NCBI GenBank assembly: GCA_025061115.1
Contig: JANZKC010000001.1
Location: 96,001-160,000 of the forward strand
DNA length: 64,000 nucleotides
Direction of reading: 5' to 3'
DNA from: Candidatus Culexmicrobium cathedralense
Lineage (GTDB): Archaea; Thermoproteota; Methanomethylicia; Culexarchaeales; Culexmicrobiaceae
The position numbers and the translations under genes are program-made. Under the pieces are notes generated by a model. That model saw only the letters and a list, made by a program, of their open reading frames with translations. It had not been told where the DNA came from and did no database searches. Below, piece after piece: positions 1-11,693 of this stretch. Position 1 is the first letter of the stretch; every line of letters begins with the position of its first letter.

Positions 1-1
1 T

Positions 2-982
2 TATTCCATCAAAGATCTAAGAAAATTTATTGAAGGAGATAATGAAGTAATAATAGCGTTTTATGGCGGCGAACCGCTAATCAACTCAAAATTTATAATG
101 CAAGTAATGGATGAAATCCCTCATGCTAAATTCGTAATTCAAACCAATGGCACGTTAATCTCGAAGCTCGATGAAGAATACTGGCGAAAATTCAAAGCCA
201 TACTTCTATCAATTGATGGGAGAAAGGAAGTAAATGATTACTATAGGGGGGCTAAAACTTATCAAAAAGTCATTAAAGCTGCAAGATGGCTGAAGTCCAT
301 AGGATTTAATGGAGATTTAGTTGCTAGAATGACAGTGTCCGAAGCAAGCGACATCTACAAAGAAGTAACTCACCTTCTCTCCCTAAAACTATTCGACCAT
401 ATTCACTGGCAATTAGATGTTGTGTGGAGTAACAGATGGAAAAACTTTGATGAATGGTGTAGGCACTCATATAAGCCTGGAATAAATAGATTGGCAAAAT
501 TATGGGTCAAGGAAGCCAAAAAAGGCAAAATTTTAGGTTTAGTTCCATTTCTAGGGATTTTGAAAGCAATGATTTTTGCTGGAAAGCTCGAATCTCCACC
601 ATGCGGAGCAGGCACTTCCGCAATAGCCATTTCAACCGATGGAAGAATACTCGCATGCCCCATAGCAGTTGACGTTAAATGGGCTGAACTCGGAAATATA
701 TGGAACTGCAAATGGATGGATGTCATAAATAAGGTTAGAATTGAGGAGCCATGCACTTCATGCGCATACTTCAAATATTGTGGAGGAAGATGCCTTTACG
801 CCTACTTTGAAAAGCTTTGGGGCGAGGAAGGATTTAGGAAAATTTGCAATCTCACCATTCACACAATAAAAGAACTACTTAAAATAAAAGATGAATTGTT
901 AAAATTAATAGATGAGAAAGTTGTTTCTACTGAAAGCATCATCTATCCAAAATTCAACAATACAACCGAAATAATACCCTAA
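2..982 (+). CDS. Radical SAM/SPASM domain protein (AF_0577/TIGR04084-like), 5'-truncated by the window edge
   Basis: The frame is open from position 2 (YSIKDLRKF...AFYGGEPL). It has QTNG and SIDG motifs and C-terminal SPASM cysteines (CGAG...CP...CxxCxxxxxCxGxC). The CxxxCxxC motif would lie upstream of the window. Confidence 0.85.
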   Translation, partial: YSIKDLRKFIEGDNEVIIAFYGGEPLINSKFIMQVMDEIPHAKFVIQTNGTLISKLDEEYWRKFKAILLSIDGRKEVNDYYRGAKTYQKVIKAARWLKSIGFNGDLVARMTVSEASDIYKEVTHLLSLKLFDHIHWQLDVVWSNRWKNFDEWCRHSYKPGINRLAKLWVKEAKKGKILGLVPFLGILKAMIFAGKLESPPCGAGTSAIAISTDGRILACPIAVDVKWAELGNIWNCKWMDVINKVRIEEPCTSCAYFKYCGGRCLYAYFEKLWGEEGFRKICNLTIHTIKELLKIKDELLKLIDEKVVSTESIIYPKFNNTTEIIP

Positions 983-7792: not shown

Positions 7793-8920
7793 TCAACTAA
7801 ACAACTTCCATGCCAAGTTTACGTATATTTTACTCATCTTAATCAATTCTTTAATTGAAATGTACTCGTCAGCTCTATGAGCAGCTCCAAGCGCTCCCGG
7901 CCCAAAGGTAATTATCTCAACGCCCCCCTCAACAAAGTACCTCATGTCAAGGCCGCCAATGCACATCGTAGGCTTTGGAGCAACTCCCAAAATTTTACAT
8001 GCAGCTTCATCCGCAAGCTTAACTATCCTTGAATTTGGATCAGTTACACAAGCATTTGACTTGCCAAGCACTTCGAGTTCAACCTTCAATTGAGGATCCT
8101 TAAGCCTCATCTCTTCAAGGAAAAGCGTTATTTCCTCCAATGCCTCATCAGGCGACTCCTCTGGAACTATCCTTCTATCAATGGTGAAGCTGCATATTAA
8201 CGGAACAACATTTTTAGCTCCACCAAAAACTTCTCCCGCGATATTCATCGTTGCTTTAGCACCTCTAGGATCAATGTAATCGTAATTGCTCTTCTTTGCT
8301 TCAACTCATTAATCATTGCATGCGCAACTTCAAGCATTTCCTCGAAGGCATTAACTCCAAGCCATGGAGTAGAGCCATGCGCAGCCTTACCCTTAACCAC
8401 AACTCTAACCCACAGCACCCCCTTATGACTAAACCATATGCACTCGGTTGAAGAAGGCTCTGCTATTATGCAGTAATCAGGAAAAGCGATTCCCCTACTC
8501 AAGATATATCCGACGCTTGTTGCACCGCCTAACTCTTCATCAGGAGTGAAGGAAAGCTCAATAGACCCATTGAAGTTTGAGCAAATCTCTGCTAACGCCT
8601 TAGAAGCAATGAGAATTGAAGTTATGCCGCACTTCATGTCAGTTGAGCCTCTTCCATAAATTCTCCCACTCGCAACCTTGGCCTTGAAAGGCTCAGTTAT
8701 GCTCCAACCAGAACCCGGAGGAACCACATCATAATAGCCATTGAAATGCAAAACCGGCCTATCGCTGACCCCCTTCAACCTCGCAAGGGCAATGAAACGT
8801 GGGTAATCAACCAAATTAGGGTAGAATCGGACATTCCTTATAGTGCTCTCCAGGAGGCACAACTGTTGGAAAACCTATTAAGTCACTTAGTATCCTAATG
8901 ACCTCACCTTCCAATTTCAT
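7793..8920 (-). pseudogene. M20 peptidase (DapE/ArgE family) pseudogene in three fragments
   Basis: The N-terminus MKLEGEVIRILSDLIGFPTVVPPGEHY starts at 8920 and breaks at about 8830; a second break lies at about 8295. The metal-ligand His is lost (HFNGYYDVVP), while GRGSTDMK, DEELGG and AHRADE remain. Confidence 0.85.
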
Positions 8921-9077
8921 CGACAATTGAAAAGGCTTTCCTCAACAATTAGACTCGCCTAAAAATGCTGAGGAATATTAAGCATTTATAATTTGGCAAA
9001 ATCAGAAAGCATACTTTTAATAATCATCAAGCCAATATTTTAGTTGATGCCGCCAATTAATTAGGGAAAGTGAGAAA

Positions 9078-10130
9078 ATGGGTGGAATACTATTCATTGG
9101 AGCGGGAAGCGGCGGTGAAAGAATACTTTCAATAGCATATGGCACATTTAAAAATTTAAGAAGTCCTGAAAACTACTTCGTCGCTTTAAACACTAGCAGA
9201 AAAGATCATGAAAGGGTTAAGTCATACTTTGAAGAGAGGAGAATATCCTCATACCCAAACTTCATATTTGAAACCATTGGTCAAGCCGTTTTAAGTGGAT
9301 ATGGTGCTGGAAAAGACCCAAAATTGGGTTTAAAAGCTTATGAAACTGATAGAGAGCAAGTCGTTAACATGCTTAAAAAGCTACATAAAAAGCATAACTT
9401 CAAAATTGCAATTCCCATAGCAAGCCTAGGTGGCGGATGCGGAACGATGATTTTAGGGGAAATAGCCAATGACATTAGGGAGGAGCTTTCCCTTAGAGTT
9501 ATACCCCTATGCACCGTGCCATTTAGAAGGGAAGGAGACCTACTAATTGAAAATGCAATATTAGGGTTAAAGAACCTTTTGAGTAAGGGATTGAGCCCGC
9601 TCATATTTGATAATGAGCTTATGATGAGATTTAGCCAGACAGTTGGAGAAGGAGTTGACAGAGCCAACATAATAATTACTTCATTAATTTCAAGCCTAGT
9701 AGACTTGGTGGAGTTCGGAGGATTCGCAAACCCACCCATAGACATCATCGATTTAACGAGGCTGATACTGCCACAATGCGGCTTCTTTACAGTAGTCTAC
9801 CTAGACAATTACAGGGACTTTAAGAAGAAGTGGAAAGATTTCTTTGAATATCATAAGTCACTAATTTCAAGACCGATCGATGGAACAAACGCCTTTGTGA
9901 TGTTCAAGGCCAGAAGCTTTCCACATGAAATGGCTGAAAAAGTTCTTTCATACCTTCGAGTCAAGTATAAAGCTAAGGAGATAATACCCTCAACGCTTGA
10001 AGATAGGTCTTTCGGAGGATACACCATAGTTGCAATGGTTTGGGGAATGTCCATAAAAGACATGAAACCTAGACTAAAAACAAAGAGGCCACTTAGCGAA
10101 GAAATACTAAAGGCTTTGAGGCTAAGCTAA
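9078..10130 (+). CDS. Divergent tubulin/FtsZ-superfamily GTPase
   Basis: T1-like IGAGSGG.RI, T2-like ALNTS, T3 GYGAGKDP.LG, T4 SLGGGCGT, T5 PFRREG, T6 FDN and T7-like PIDIID. Confidence 0.85.
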   Translation: MGGILFIGAGSGGERILSIAYGTFKNLRSPENYFVALNTSRKDHERVKSYFEERRISSYPNFIFETIGQAVLSGYGAGKDPKLGLKAYETDREQVVNMLKKLHKKHNFKIAIPIASLGGGCGTMILGEIANDIREELSLRVIPLCTVPFRREGDLLIENAILGLKNLLSKGLSPLIFDNELMMRFSQTVGEGVDRANIIITSLISSLVDLVEFGGFANPPIDIIDLTRLILPQCGFFTVVYLDNYRDFKKKWKDFFEYHKSLISRPIDGTNAFVMFKARSFPHEMAEKVLSYLRVKYKAKEIIPSTLEDRSFGGYTIVAMVWGMSIKDMKPRLKTKRPLSEEILKALRLS

Positions 10131-10219: not shown

Positions 10220-10543
10220 GTGGGTGGGAAGCATAAGAAAAGCATTTCTCAAATGGAGAAGCAGCAGAGGTTAGCGCAACTAAGAGTACTAAGAGGTAAA
10301 AGGCGATTCGAAGCTATGGAAAAGACGGTAAGGGACATACTCGTTACAGATGAAACCATCAGTCAAATGAAGAGAGAAATACTTAAAATGTCATGCATAA
10401 CCCCCTCAGCAGTTGCATTAAAATTCAATTTGAGGTTAAGCGTAGCTAAAGACCTACTAGAAGAAATGGAGAAGAAAGGAGAAATAATTTTGATTTCGAA
10501 GAACAGGAGACTTTCAATATATAAGCCAGCAGCTGCATCCTAA
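10220..10543 (+). CDS. rps25e: Ribosomal protein S25e (eS25)
   Basis: MGGKHKKSISQMEK, ITPSAVA.KFNLRLSVAK.LL.EM...G.I and IY motifs; a GGAGGTG SD precedes the GTG at 10220. Confidence 0.88.
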   Translation: MGGKHKKSISQMEKQQRLAQLRVLRGKRRFEAMEKTVRDILVTDETISQMKREILKMSCITPSAVALKFNLRLSVAKDLLEEMEKKGEIILISKNRRLSIYKPAAAS

Positions 10544-11193
10544 ATGAATTCACTTAGCCTACGAGAACGCTTAACTTTAGGAAGCTTACCAGTAGCATTA
10601 ACAACGCCAATGGGAGAGTAAGTCACATAACCTAAATCAACAAGCTTCCTCAAAACCAAATCCGGCTTAGAAATGCCAAGCATCTTCAAATCCTCCAAAA
10701 ACCTTATGATTCCAACACTCCAGTAATCATTGAGATACTCTATGGCTTTCTCAAGATCTTCATCAGCCACATGCTCTTCAGCCTCTTCAATTACTGGCTT
10801 AAGCTCAGTTTTCTCCGCTTCTTTAACCTCCAATACCTTATCTAAACTCTCAATTTTCTCCTCAGCAGCTCCACACATGGAAGAGCTAGTTTGAACCTCT
10901 TCAACTGAAGAAGCCTCAGTTGACTTCTCGACTTCAATGCCTTTCCGTATTGCAACAATACGTGGCACAGGATAAGCTACAATATAATCTTCAGGCTCGA
11001 AAAAACCCTCAGGAGCAGAAATTTTCCCCTCTTCAATTAAGTCGTTCAACGCGATGCTCAAAGTTATACTTCCAACATTATTTTCCTCAGCCCACTTAGC
11101 TAACTCACTAAAGGAAACTCTGCCTCCAGCTTTCTCAATAAACCTGTAAAGTTCATTCACAATTCTCTTATAGTAGTCTTCAGCATTCATCAA
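10540..11193 (-). CDS. Hypothetical protein: two winged-helix-like domains, acidic linker and PIP-box-like C-terminus
   Basis: The L..L...G.(I/V) wHTH pattern occurs twice, joined by an E-rich linker; the protein ends RSRRLSEFI. Confidence 0.7.
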   Translation of the reverse strand: MMNAEDYYKRIVNELYRFIEKAGGRVSFSELAKWAEENNVGSITLSIALNDLIEEGKISAPEGFFEPEDYIVAYPVPRIVAIRKGIEVEKSTEASSVEEVQTSSSMCGAAEEKIESLDKVLEVKEAEKTELKPVIEEAEEHVADEDLEKAIEYLNDYWSVGIIRFLEDLKMLGISKPDLVLRKLVDLGYVTYSPIGVVNATGKLPKVKRSRRLSEFI

Positions 11194-11288: not shown

Positions 11289-11693
11289 ATGCCGAGAAAA
11301 CTTGAGAGAAAAGAGAGAAGAGCAGGGTACATGTACTTCAAATCCTCAGAAGTCAGAAGTAACATGAGACTTGAAGACATATTAAATATAGTGTTCACAA
11401 GAGCTGAGAAGTATAAGCACGCTGCACTAATAATACTTGAGGGAATTAAGGAAATCGCAAAATCGAGAAATAGAAAGCCACTATGGATAAGCGATAGCGA
11501 AATGTCCTTGCTAATTCATGAAAGACTTGGAGAGAAAAAGAAGAGCTTAGCTTATAGAGTAATCTCTGAATTCTTGGTTCCAATGGGATTCGTAAGCTAT
11601 AGGCCGGACGAGGGAAGATACTTCATAAGTAAGAGCTTTCAACTAGCATTAATAAGACTTGGAAATGCCTATGCAAGGTGGATTAAAAGTTGA
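11289..11693 (+). CDS. Hypothetical basic protein, winged-helix-like
   Basis: 134 aa with a GGTGA SD and a LVPMGFVSY...GRYFIS wing pattern. Confidence 0.65.
   Translation: MPRKLERKERRAGYMYFKSSEVRSNMRLEDILNIVFTRAEKYKHAALIILEGIKEIAKSRNRKPLWISDSEMSLLIHERLGEKKKSLAYRVISEFLVPMGFVSYRPDEGRYFISKSFQLALIRLGNAYARWIKS

Follow-up and report, generated by a model that had tools for sequence, protein, structure and literature searches.

Some archaea lack both FtsZ with SepF and the Cdv/ESCRT-III machinery; how they divide is an open question, addressed here by a single gene of Candidatus Culexmicrobium cathedralense, a hot-vent archaeon of the order Culexarchaeales (Thermoproteota; class Methanomethylicia). 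The gene occupies 9078..10130 on the + strand of the stretch of DNA analysed, called the window below (64,000 nucleotides; contig JANZKC010000001.1 of assembly GCA_025061115.1, positions 96,001 to 160,000), and encodes a 350-amino-acid (aa) protein, P0001, referred to as the FtsZ-like protein. A first-pass annotation, made from the sequence alone, had read it as a highly divergent, stand-alone member of the tubulin/FtsZ superfamily, a candidate for a new archaeal cytoskeletal family and possibly a polymer-forming GTPase. What the protein is, and whether it could divide the cell, are the questions followed here.

The first of these has an answer that is largely in print. The available excerpts of PMC9723716 (ISME Commun 2022) state that every Culexarchaeia metagenome-assembled genome (MAG) encodes an FtsZ homologue and that these "Culexarchaeia FtsZ-like" proteins make up a new, deep-branching clade placed between FtsZ2 and CetZ. 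The window's protein nests inside this clade, which was described from the same archaeal order; the family is thus uncharacterised but not new, and that part of the first-pass annotation falls. Membership of the clade is considered almost certain. The full reading preferred here is that the protein belongs to the clade, forms a GTP-dependent polymer and acts in SepF-independent cytokinesis in the Culexarchaeales, with a probability of roughly 0.5. By analogy with its relatives, it is probably a polymerising GTPase; for a role in division the odds are about even.

Motifs, fold and family of the FtsZ-like protein

The reading frame runs from an ATG to a stop codon at 10128-10130, as given by the list of open reading frames (ORFs) and their translation. 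Its nearest upstream in-frame stop lies at 9045, so that no longer start is possible. The Pfam Tubulin/FtsZ model PF00091 matches residues 4-185 with 50.3 bits (cut-off 33, E 4.5e-13), which makes the motif set described below more than a chance occurrence. The NCBIfam ftsZ equivalog TIGR00065 stays below its cut-off (48.4 against 295.2 bits), and the Pfam scan of the protein gave no match to Tubulin_2, Tubulin_C or, at E <= 10, TubZ_C.

Each of the motifs occurs once in the protein and in the expected order. The N-terminal, nucleotide-binding GTPase domain with helix H7 comprises residues 1-215 (9078..9722; this and all following features of the gene are on the + strand), as delimited by the Pfam match and by a long helix, 189-216, in the predicted structure. 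The T1 loop GAGSGG spans residues 8-13 (9099..9116), followed by an NTS motif at residues 38-40 and by the T3 loop GYGAGKDPKLG at residues 74-84 (9297..9329), which includes GAGKD (76-80) and aligns to the GxGAGxxPxxG of FtsZ. The T4 signature loop LGGGCGT spans residues 117-123 (9426..9446) and its core GGGCGT residues 118-123; T5, PFRREG, lies at residues 148-153 (9519..9536) and aligns to PFxFEG of FtsZ. The T7, or synergy, loop FANPPIDIID takes up residues 216-225 (9723..9752).

How far these loops are constrained can be read from an alignment of 47 family members (A1), which has a mean column identity of 67% and whose members are 31-87% identical to the window's protein. Invariant in its N-terminal part are G10 and S11 of T1, N38 and S40 of the NTS motif, D43, and G74, G76, G78, K79 and G84 of T3; invariant further on are L117 and G118-G120 of T4, P148, R150, E152 and G153 of T5, N159, D178, N179, N197, and F216, P219, D222, I223 and D225 of T7. 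G12 and G13 of T1 and C121 and G122 of T4 are conserved in at least 90% of the members. PF00091 is matched by 47/47 members, and FtsZ_C (PF12327) and CetZ_C (PF21011) by 0/47 at E <= 0.01.

Two loops depart from the canonical FtsZ pattern, in which the signature reads GGGTG[ST]G and T7 reads NxDxxD, as also seen in references L028-L048. In T4 a Cys replaces the canonical Thr, and a few members carry Phe or Ser at this position. The T7 motif ANPPIDIID (217-225) had been taken to replace the FtsZ spacing. The motif itself is confirmed, but the invariance of P219, D222, I223 and D225 means that the DxxD spacing is kept, and what has been lost is the conservation of N218 (N/V/T/I/F in the family). 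The alignments disagree on how the two prolines arose: they appear either as a two-residue insert after the FtsZ Asn, as in the Methanocaldococcus jannaschii row among others, or with a Pro in place of that Asn, as in the Aquifex aeolicus row. No functional elements of the superfamily are more conserved than these two loops, and the protein presents natural variants of both. A family-specific insertion between T2 and T3 was likewise correctly noticed. It covers residues 48-59, KSYFEERRISSY (9219..9254), shows as gaps in the profile, takes in a loop and the end of helix 41-53 in the model, and amounts in profile-profile alignments to 12 extra residues relative to Thermoproteota FtsZ and 9 relative to CetZ_C-type proteins.

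An FtsZ-type N-terminal extension and a long linker are both missing, as had been proposed; the domain starts at residue 4, compared with residues 15-40 in 19 FtsZ_C-bearing references. The C-terminal, or activation, domain (residues 230-337; 9765..10088) has modelled strands and helices from 234 to 324, aligns with the C-terminal domain of FtsZ and ends in a conserved KP.L..K stretch, in which P331 and L333 are invariant. Its description as basic and aromatic holds: K+R make up 19.0% and F+W+Y 14.0% of residues 230-350, compared with 12.1% and 7.9% of residues 1-215. The protein closes with the tail PLSEEILKALRLS (10089..10127), modelled as an amphipathic helix at 339-349 with a predicted local distance difference test score (pLDDT) of 61-79; its last residues, 339-350, are LSEEILKALRLS. 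For the segment PLSEEILKALR the hydrophobic moment is 0.65, which exceeds the 95th percentile for all 11-mers of the protein (0.58), at a low mean hydrophobicity of -0.04, in keeping with the potentially amphipathic helix suggested earlier. In one Bathyarchaeia-type subclade the tail is replaced by a longer one ending in ..RTKI.

An AlphaFold2 model built with A1 (mean pLDDT 93.5, predicted TM-score 0.90) consists of a strand-helix nucleotide-binding domain, the long helix 189-216, a four-strand C-terminal domain and the last helix 339-349. With high confidence, this predicted monomer would have the two-domain tubulin/FtsZ fold, with a Rossmann-like domain, the core helix H7 and an activation domain. 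The matches listed by Foldseek all belong to FtsZ or CetZ, with E values of 7e-21 to 3e-17 and a TM by query of 0.66-0.76; the top ones stand at E ~1e-20 and TM 0.70-0.76. The top rows of VIA-align are tied at Z 32-33 over 297-322 residues for FtsZ and CetZ chains: CetZ2 4b45_A gives Z 33.2 (root-mean-square deviation (rmsd) 3.5, 318 aligned, model 2..345), M. jannaschii FtsZ 2vap Z 32.8 (rmsd 2.9, 307 aligned) and Methanosaeta thermophila CetZ 3zid_A Z 32.5 (rmsd 3.8, 322 aligned, model 1..350). The aligned ranges of 3zid_A and 4b45_A, which record the first and last aligned residue only, include the model's helix 339-349, so the tail helix would sit where the C-terminal helix of CetZ lies. 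Judging from the model, the tail may be such a CetZ-like helix or a membrane- or partner-binding peptide. A homodimer prediction with GTP and Mg scored 0.06 and 0.10 against a mark of 0.42, and nothing is drawn from it.

Sequence comparison with solved structures leads to the same two groups. In a single-sequence search, the best match is 3zid_A (E 3.2e-11), with CetZ and FtsZ chains at 3e-11 to 1e-7 and tubulin chains at 4e-4 or weaker. The A1 profile scores 70.4 bits with 3zid_A, 65.1 with Aquifex FtsZ, 58.4 with CetZ2, 57.8 with M. jannaschii FtsZ and 28.1 with RepX. Profile-profile alignment with 13 Thermoproteota FtsZ proteins covers 280 columns and both domains (E 3.8e-18); that with six CetZ_C-type proteins covers 235 columns and ends after T7 (E 1e-14).

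The family itself is sharply bounded. Among 5.8 billion protein clusters, 47 close relatives besides the query were found (48 clusters in all; 45-87% identity, E <= 8.5e-87), and the next matches, three FtsZ_C-bearing proteins, have E values of 3e-4 to 5.5e-4. When 1.84 billion representatives were scanned with HMMER without filters, 890 matched at E <= 1e-3, 12 at 1e-10 and 4 at 1e-30. The closest titled records, from Ca. Culexmicrobium thermophilum GB-1845-036 (83% identity) and Ca. Culexarchaeum nevadense GBS-70-058 (77%), match over 349-350 residues and share neighbouring genes with the window. Further records are labelled Methanomethylicia/Methanomethylicota, Bathyarchaeota/Bathyarchaeia, Thermoplasmata UBA9212 and Nitrososphaerota, with one cluster labelled Geothermarchaeota.

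A careful maximum-likelihood tree of 66 rows, from which eight long-branch rows were dropped (P0112, P0097, P0122, P0076, P0123, P0060, P0129 and P0070), separates this family from its relatives. Support, given as ultrafast bootstrap/SH-aLRT, is 99/97 for the family, represented by 21 rows, and 100/99 when its sister group is included; the FtsZ_C set has 99/97 and the CetZ_C set 100/100. The split between the family plus sister group and the FtsZ_C plus CetZ_C sets has 100/99, and a quick tree of all 74 rows agrees. The tree leaves out tubulins, TubZ, FtsZL1 and artubulins, its long branches meet, and its groups are labelled by their Pfam C-terminal domain, with FtsZ1 and FtsZ2 unlabelled. FtsZ_C is present in 19/19 of the Thermoproteota and Bathyarchaeia FtsZ references. 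The FtsZ-like family falls outside the CetZ_C set, which consists of four references, all metagenomic and none a euryarchaeal CetZ, namely P0068 (from a cluster named Nitrososphaerales) and three from one Bathyarchaeia genome; CetZ_C scores 134-152 bits in P0068, L051, L053 and L055. A PF00091 match above its cut-off, a well-supported clade of its own and membership of neither the FtsZ nor the CetZ hidden Markov model family together bear out the view of a divergent, stand-alone superfamily member.

The sister group (A2: P0060, P0065, P0082, P0086, P0094, P0168, P0221-P0230) comprises tubulin-fold proteins of 380-415 aa, which align with the family over their full length (338 columns, probability 99.94, E 9.7e-37). 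They share with it the PPID..D T7 loop (in the sister group [CS]PPIDWSD), a KxWK motif and a C-terminal GxxxxxIxP stretch, and differ in T4 (GKGTG, not GGGCG), in T1 (GSSA) and in their longer inserts. The group is rare: 15 clusters were found at E <= 1e-10, most without a Pfam match on record, and its one named record carries the label Deltaproteobacteria. A search of 401 Thermoproteota genomes did not find the group, no relative was confirmed in viral contigs, and no description of it was met in the available excerpts of PMC9723716, PMC9871819 and PMC9856176. Still more divergent is a 378-aa tubulin-like protein in genome G254 of the same class (family f5; L068:1273-2406, +), with T4 VGHGFGSG and T7 GMDKSD, which scores 63 bits with the sister-group profile, 42 with the family profile and 29-30 with FtsZ/CetZ-like profiles. 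Genome G088, also of f5, has a similar weak match.

Judged from the residues that are kept, loops T1-T6 and the T7 aspartates support the presence of the parts that would be needed for GTP binding and polymerisation-dependent hydrolysis. On established knowledge of FtsZ and tubulin, the N-terminal domain would bind GTP and the subunits would assemble head to tail, with D222 and D225 in the T7 loop of one subunit completing the GTPase site of the next and triggering hydrolysis on reaching the gamma-phosphate. In the Culexarchaeales, such filaments may act in cytokinesis without SepF, and the basic C-terminal region or the short tail may provide a contact with the membrane or a partner.

The same loops invite an opposite explanation, by which the protein has decayed or been repurposed into a non-polymerising form, for example a monomeric GTP-binding regulator, and the T4 and T7 changes record the loss of the classical mechanism. 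The replacement of the signature Thr by Cys (Phe or Ser in a few members), the unconserved T7 Asn and the low TIGR00065 score of 48.4 against 295.2 bits would fit this, and there is a precedent in a thaumarchaeal FtsZ-like protein that is reportedly absent from the division site. Against it, the T7 aspartates and the glycine-rich phosphate loops are invariant over a range of 31-87% identity, a single copy is kept in 10/12 genomes of the order, and the model is a complete and confident FtsZ/CetZ fold with H7 and activation domain. Loss of polymerisation is accordingly regarded as quite improbable.

Distribution of the family relative to ESCRT-III, SepF and actin

If the FtsZ-like protein is a polymerising GTPase, its task has to be sought in the company it keeps. 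The genome that contains the window (1.98 Mb in 25 contigs, 99.99% complete, 7.65% contamination) has one PF00091 match, the FtsZ-like gene itself, and no match to SepF (PF04472), CdvA, Snf7 (E <= 0.01) or MIT. A genome check suggested by the first-pass annotation thus found neither canonical FtsZ nor SepF, CdvA or detectable ESCRT-III, and one actin-family gene. The latter (423 aa, 51.7 bits; C1 ~729,900-731,950; L004: 838-2106, +) is overlapped by 5 bases by a 252-aa coiled-coil gene with weak BLOC1_2 and Snf7-like matches (L004: 2102-2857, +), and the two look like the crenactin-plus-arcadin pair reported for Culexarchaeia in the excerpts of PMC9723716. At E <= 10 the coiled-coil gene, BLOC1_2-like in character, is also the best Snf7 match of the genome (E 0.37) and was rejected as ESCRT-III. 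Two Vps4_C matches (C4:65723-65836 and C1:194494-194604; L002, L003) belong to double-AAA proteins of Cdc48 type without MIT, so CdvC was not confirmed; this is at odds with the CdvC homologues that PMC9723716, as excerpted, states for Culexarchaeia. The same excerpts take the lack of CdvA and CdvB to suggest an alternative division mechanism, which is also the inference made here.

On the scale of the phylum, 11 of 401 sampled Thermoproteota genomes contain a true family member (E <= 5e-95) and 61 weaker matches only; 17/17 of the weaker matches scanned are FtsZ_C proteins. Within the window's class, all 62 genomes (families f1-f9) were surveyed, and these, like all genomes in the study, are metagenome-assembled. 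The FtsZ-like family is present in 10/12 genomes of the window's own order, the two misses being 90% and 45% complete, and in one genome of f5 (G248), with distant relatives in two more f5 genomes. It was not found in f4 (0/32), f6 (0/10), f7, f8 or f9.

Snf7, the ESCRT-III model, shows the complementary pattern. It matches in 32/32 genomes of f4, 10/10 of f6, 1/1 of f8 and 2/2 of f9, that is, in 45/45 genomes of these four families, all of which lack the FtsZ-like family; this serves as a positive control that the model detects ESCRT-III in the class. In the 12 genomes of the window's order it gave a single match, below the cut-off (G302, 15.8 bits, in a 649-aa frame), and in f5 (0/4) and f7 (0/1) none. 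Snf7 and the FtsZ-like family are therefore mutually exclusive in the class: 13 genomes have the family or its distant relatives, and four (G326, G406, G120 and G165) have neither.

Actin-family and SepF matches refine this picture. The actin family is represented in f1 (5/5, including the window's own genome) and f3 (1/1) and was not detected in f2 (0/6). In the six f2 genomes the FtsZ-like protein is the only candidate among the cytoskeletal families searched, with no other tubulin homologue and no actin-family, Snf7 or SepF match (SepF searched in 3/6). In three tested genomes of the window's order it is the only PF00091 match. SepF exceeds its cut-off in G360, G402 and G403, which are exactly the 3/3 family-bearing genomes that have other tubulin homologues, and in 0/8 of those in which the family member is the sole one. 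According to Pende et al., cited in the excerpts of PMC9723716, the SepF anchor goes with archaeal FtsZ systems. In the Bathyarchaeia genome G403 a family member coexists with one protein of the FtsZ_C type and three of the CetZ_C type, which identifies the FtsZ-like family as a separate paralogue rather than a local variant of FtsZ or CetZ.

A role in division is suggested by three of these results: the family and ESCRT-III are complementary, FtsZ and SepF are absent, and no other cytoskeletal candidate turned up in the f2 genomes. Within one class, some orders have ESCRT-III but no tubulin homologue, and another order has the FtsZ-like protein but no ESCRT-III; in the latter, this protein is thus the obvious candidate for a division machine of another kind. 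The class would also offer a natural case of how lineages switch between tubulin-type and ESCRT-III systems.

The main competing explanation accepts a polymerising GTPase and gives it a CetZ-like role, in cell shape, motility or some other cytoskeletal task, with division left to the actin-family system or another machine. Several likenesses to CetZ speak for this: 3zid_A is the best match among solved structures by sequence, CetZ2 has the highest Z score, the tail appears to overlay the last helix of CetZ, and the N-terminal extension and long linker are missing in both. Its occurrence in Bathyarchaeia as an additional paralogue in genomes that have FtsZ and SepF, and the actin-family gene in the window's own genome and in f1 and f3, point the same way. 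Conversely, CetZ_C is found in 0/47 members and the family lies outside the CetZ_C set of the tree, the six f2 genomes would be left without any known division candidate, and the family is strictly complementary to ESCRT-III within the class. A CetZ-like role is therefore seen as possible, though on the unlikely side.

Several further points count against assigning division to the FtsZ-like protein. The complementarity with ESCRT-III may go back to only two or three evolutionary events in closely related lineages, so the 62 genomes do not count as independent. Two Bathyarchaeia genomes hold the family beside FtsZ_C-type proteins and SepF; since they keep this set too, the FtsZ-like protein is not needed there as the only division protein. 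In f1 and f3, by analogy, the actin-family and coiled-coil pair could carry out division, and an actin-family system has been proposed for division in the Thermoproteales in the excerpts of PMC9723716. GTPase activity is a prediction from a sequence in which the T4 Thr has become Cys and the region of the T7 Asn is altered. The tail varies across the family and is missing from 2/47 members, and no conserved neighbour was found outside the window's own order in 11 related loci and the window, hence no known partner or anchor. All the genomes are, moreover, MAGs.

With these points weighed, SepF-independent cytokinesis by the FtsZ-like protein keeps the even chance given above. A bolder version would make the family and its "PPID" sister group a fourth deep archaeal tubulin branch next to FtsZ1/2, CetZ and the tubulin-like groups, would have the Culexarchaeales protein form a cytokinetic filament that, without SepF, replaces the ESCRT-III/Cdv machinery which sister orders of the class still use, and would assign the contact with membrane or partner to its own basic C-terminal region and tail. 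In this complete form it is rather doubtful.

Upstream region and neighbouring genes

An AT-rich intergenic region, 8863..9077 (no strand assigned), is shared by the FtsZ-like gene and a divergently oriented M20 peptidase gene. As read from its letters, it contains the TATA-like elements TTTATAA and TTTTAATAA and, a few bases upstream of the ATG, the purine-rich GGGAAAGTGAG; it may thus hold a putative promoter and ribosome-binding site of the FtsZ-like gene.

The nine adjacent ORFs encode a DUF134 protein, a cupin, a split M20 peptidase, ribosomal protein S25e, a protein with a PolB1-binding-protein-2 (PBP2) domain, an ORF without family, a PfkB protein and an M24 peptidase. SepF or another division gene is not among these nine, in agreement with the first-pass annotation. 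The order cupin / FtsZ-like / (S25e) / PBP2-like / 134-aa ORF / PfkB recurs in five Culexarchaeia loci, of which the window is one, and in no locus outside them, which indicates that the FtsZ-like gene is chromosomal, single-copy and stand-alone. Neighbours were compared in two ways: all ORFs within 5 kb were searched against each other in 11 related loci and the window (L014 and L025 being the same place), and 33 neighbours from 9 loci beyond the synteny block of the named Culexarchaeia MAGs were searched with Pfam.

This setting bears on another proposal, that the protein is a DNA-partition motor of the TubZ/PhuZ type, belonging to a plasmid, a virus or an integrated element. The A1 profile does weakly reach the TubZ-like RepX 4ei7_A (E 8.8e-6, 28.1 bits), and neighbours in a protein atlas include generic tubulin, CetZ, TubZ and viral tubulin clusters, which are leads only and not evidence. 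The gene, however, lies amid housekeeping genes (S25e, methionine aminopeptidase, PfkB) whose order is kept in the five Culexarchaeia loci, TubZ_C is not matched at E up to 10, and FtsZ and CetZ far outscore RepX. Pattern scans of viral contigs matched 5 stretches for the family and 62 for the sister group, none of them a confirmed relative. A partition motor is the least probable of the explanations considered, and highly improbable.

Some of the neighbours deserve a remark of their own. The M20/M25/M40 peptidase is split into two ORFs on the - strand, 7793-8248 and 8245-8862, which share 4 bases; profile positions 3-104 fall in the upstream ORF and 112-204 in the downstream one. A frameshift, a pseudogene or an error of assembly may account for the split. 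L012, the closest relative, likewise shows two separate matches. An M20 peptidase also stands beside the gene in the Bathyarchaeia locus L013, in the other orientation and with 24-25% identity, and is treated as a coincidence. The PBP2-domain protein (10540-11193, -) is acidic and 217 aa long, and the ORF at 11289-11693 (+) encodes 134 aa without a Pfam family. In 3/5 Culexarchaeia loci both follow the FtsZ-like gene directly, and in the other two, the window and L005, they come after S25e; as these loci are close kin, no functional link with the FtsZ-like gene is implied.

Eight DNA runs, from hydrothermal-vent or sediment metagenomes and one of them maybe the source sample, hold the stretch wholly or partly; no RNA run is listed.

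Comparison with known systems

From the eukaryote-like tubulins and artubulins the FtsZ-like protein differs in having no Tubulin_C and in being closer to CetZ and FtsZ than to tubulins. With TubZ/PhuZ and FtsZL1 (Tubulin_2) it has only the common superfamily GTPase domain in common; it differs from them in its Pfam matches, its weak match to RepX and its chromosomal housekeeping context.

Canonical FtsZ, bacterial or archaeal (FtsZ1/FtsZ2), has a similar fold (Z ~32-33), and T3, T5, T6 and the DxxD of T7 align with it. The FtsZ-like protein is nevertheless below the cut-off of TIGR00065, lacks FtsZ_C, falls outside the FtsZ_C set of the tree and occurs in a genome without SepF. Unlike FtsZ, its family has no N-terminal extension and no long linker with C-terminal peptide, and it carries GGGCGT and N-PP-IDIID.

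The CetZ proteins (Haloferax volcanii CetZ1 and CetZ2 and that of M. thermophila; PDB 4b46, 4b45 and 3zid) are as close in fold (Z 32.4-33.2) and provide the best sequence match among solved structures. They also lack the N-terminal extension, and the tail helix of the FtsZ-like model appears to overlay their short C-terminal helix. In contrast to CetZ, the family has CetZ_C in 0/47 members, Cys for Thr in T4 and PP in T7, forms a clade apart from the four CetZ_C references of the tree and, in one Bathyarchaeia genome, coexists with three CetZ_C-type proteins.

A CetZ survey (PMC9856176) and the work of Santana-Molina et al. (PMC9871819) make no mention of a Culexarchaeia FtsZ-like clade in their available excerpts. 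In full-text searches, FtsZ together with Culexarchaeia/Culexarchaeales, Methanomethylicia, Verstraetearchaeota or Geothermarchaeota turned up in a single paper besides PMC9723716, namely PMC7203096; experimental work on the clade was not found.

The closest known entity remains the Culexarchaeia FtsZ-like clade of PMC9723716, which, as far as its excerpts go, is the same family. Orthologues are found in two named Culexarchaeia MAGs, in the same gene order; the labels Bathyarchaeia, Thermoplasmata and Geothermarchaeota listed in that paper match those of the family's records; and its placement between FtsZ2 and CetZ agrees with the present tree. Within those excerpts the clade is a phylogenetic note, with no motif, structure or biochemical work on it. 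Its existence and placement are already in print, and further gains are to be expected from biochemistry and cell biology. The present analysis adds to that description a motif definition (Cys in T4, PP-x-D-x-x-D in T7 and the 12-residue insert between T2 and T3), a confident model, the sister group, the rule of co-occurrence with SepF and a class-wide complementarity with ESCRT-III that includes a positive control.

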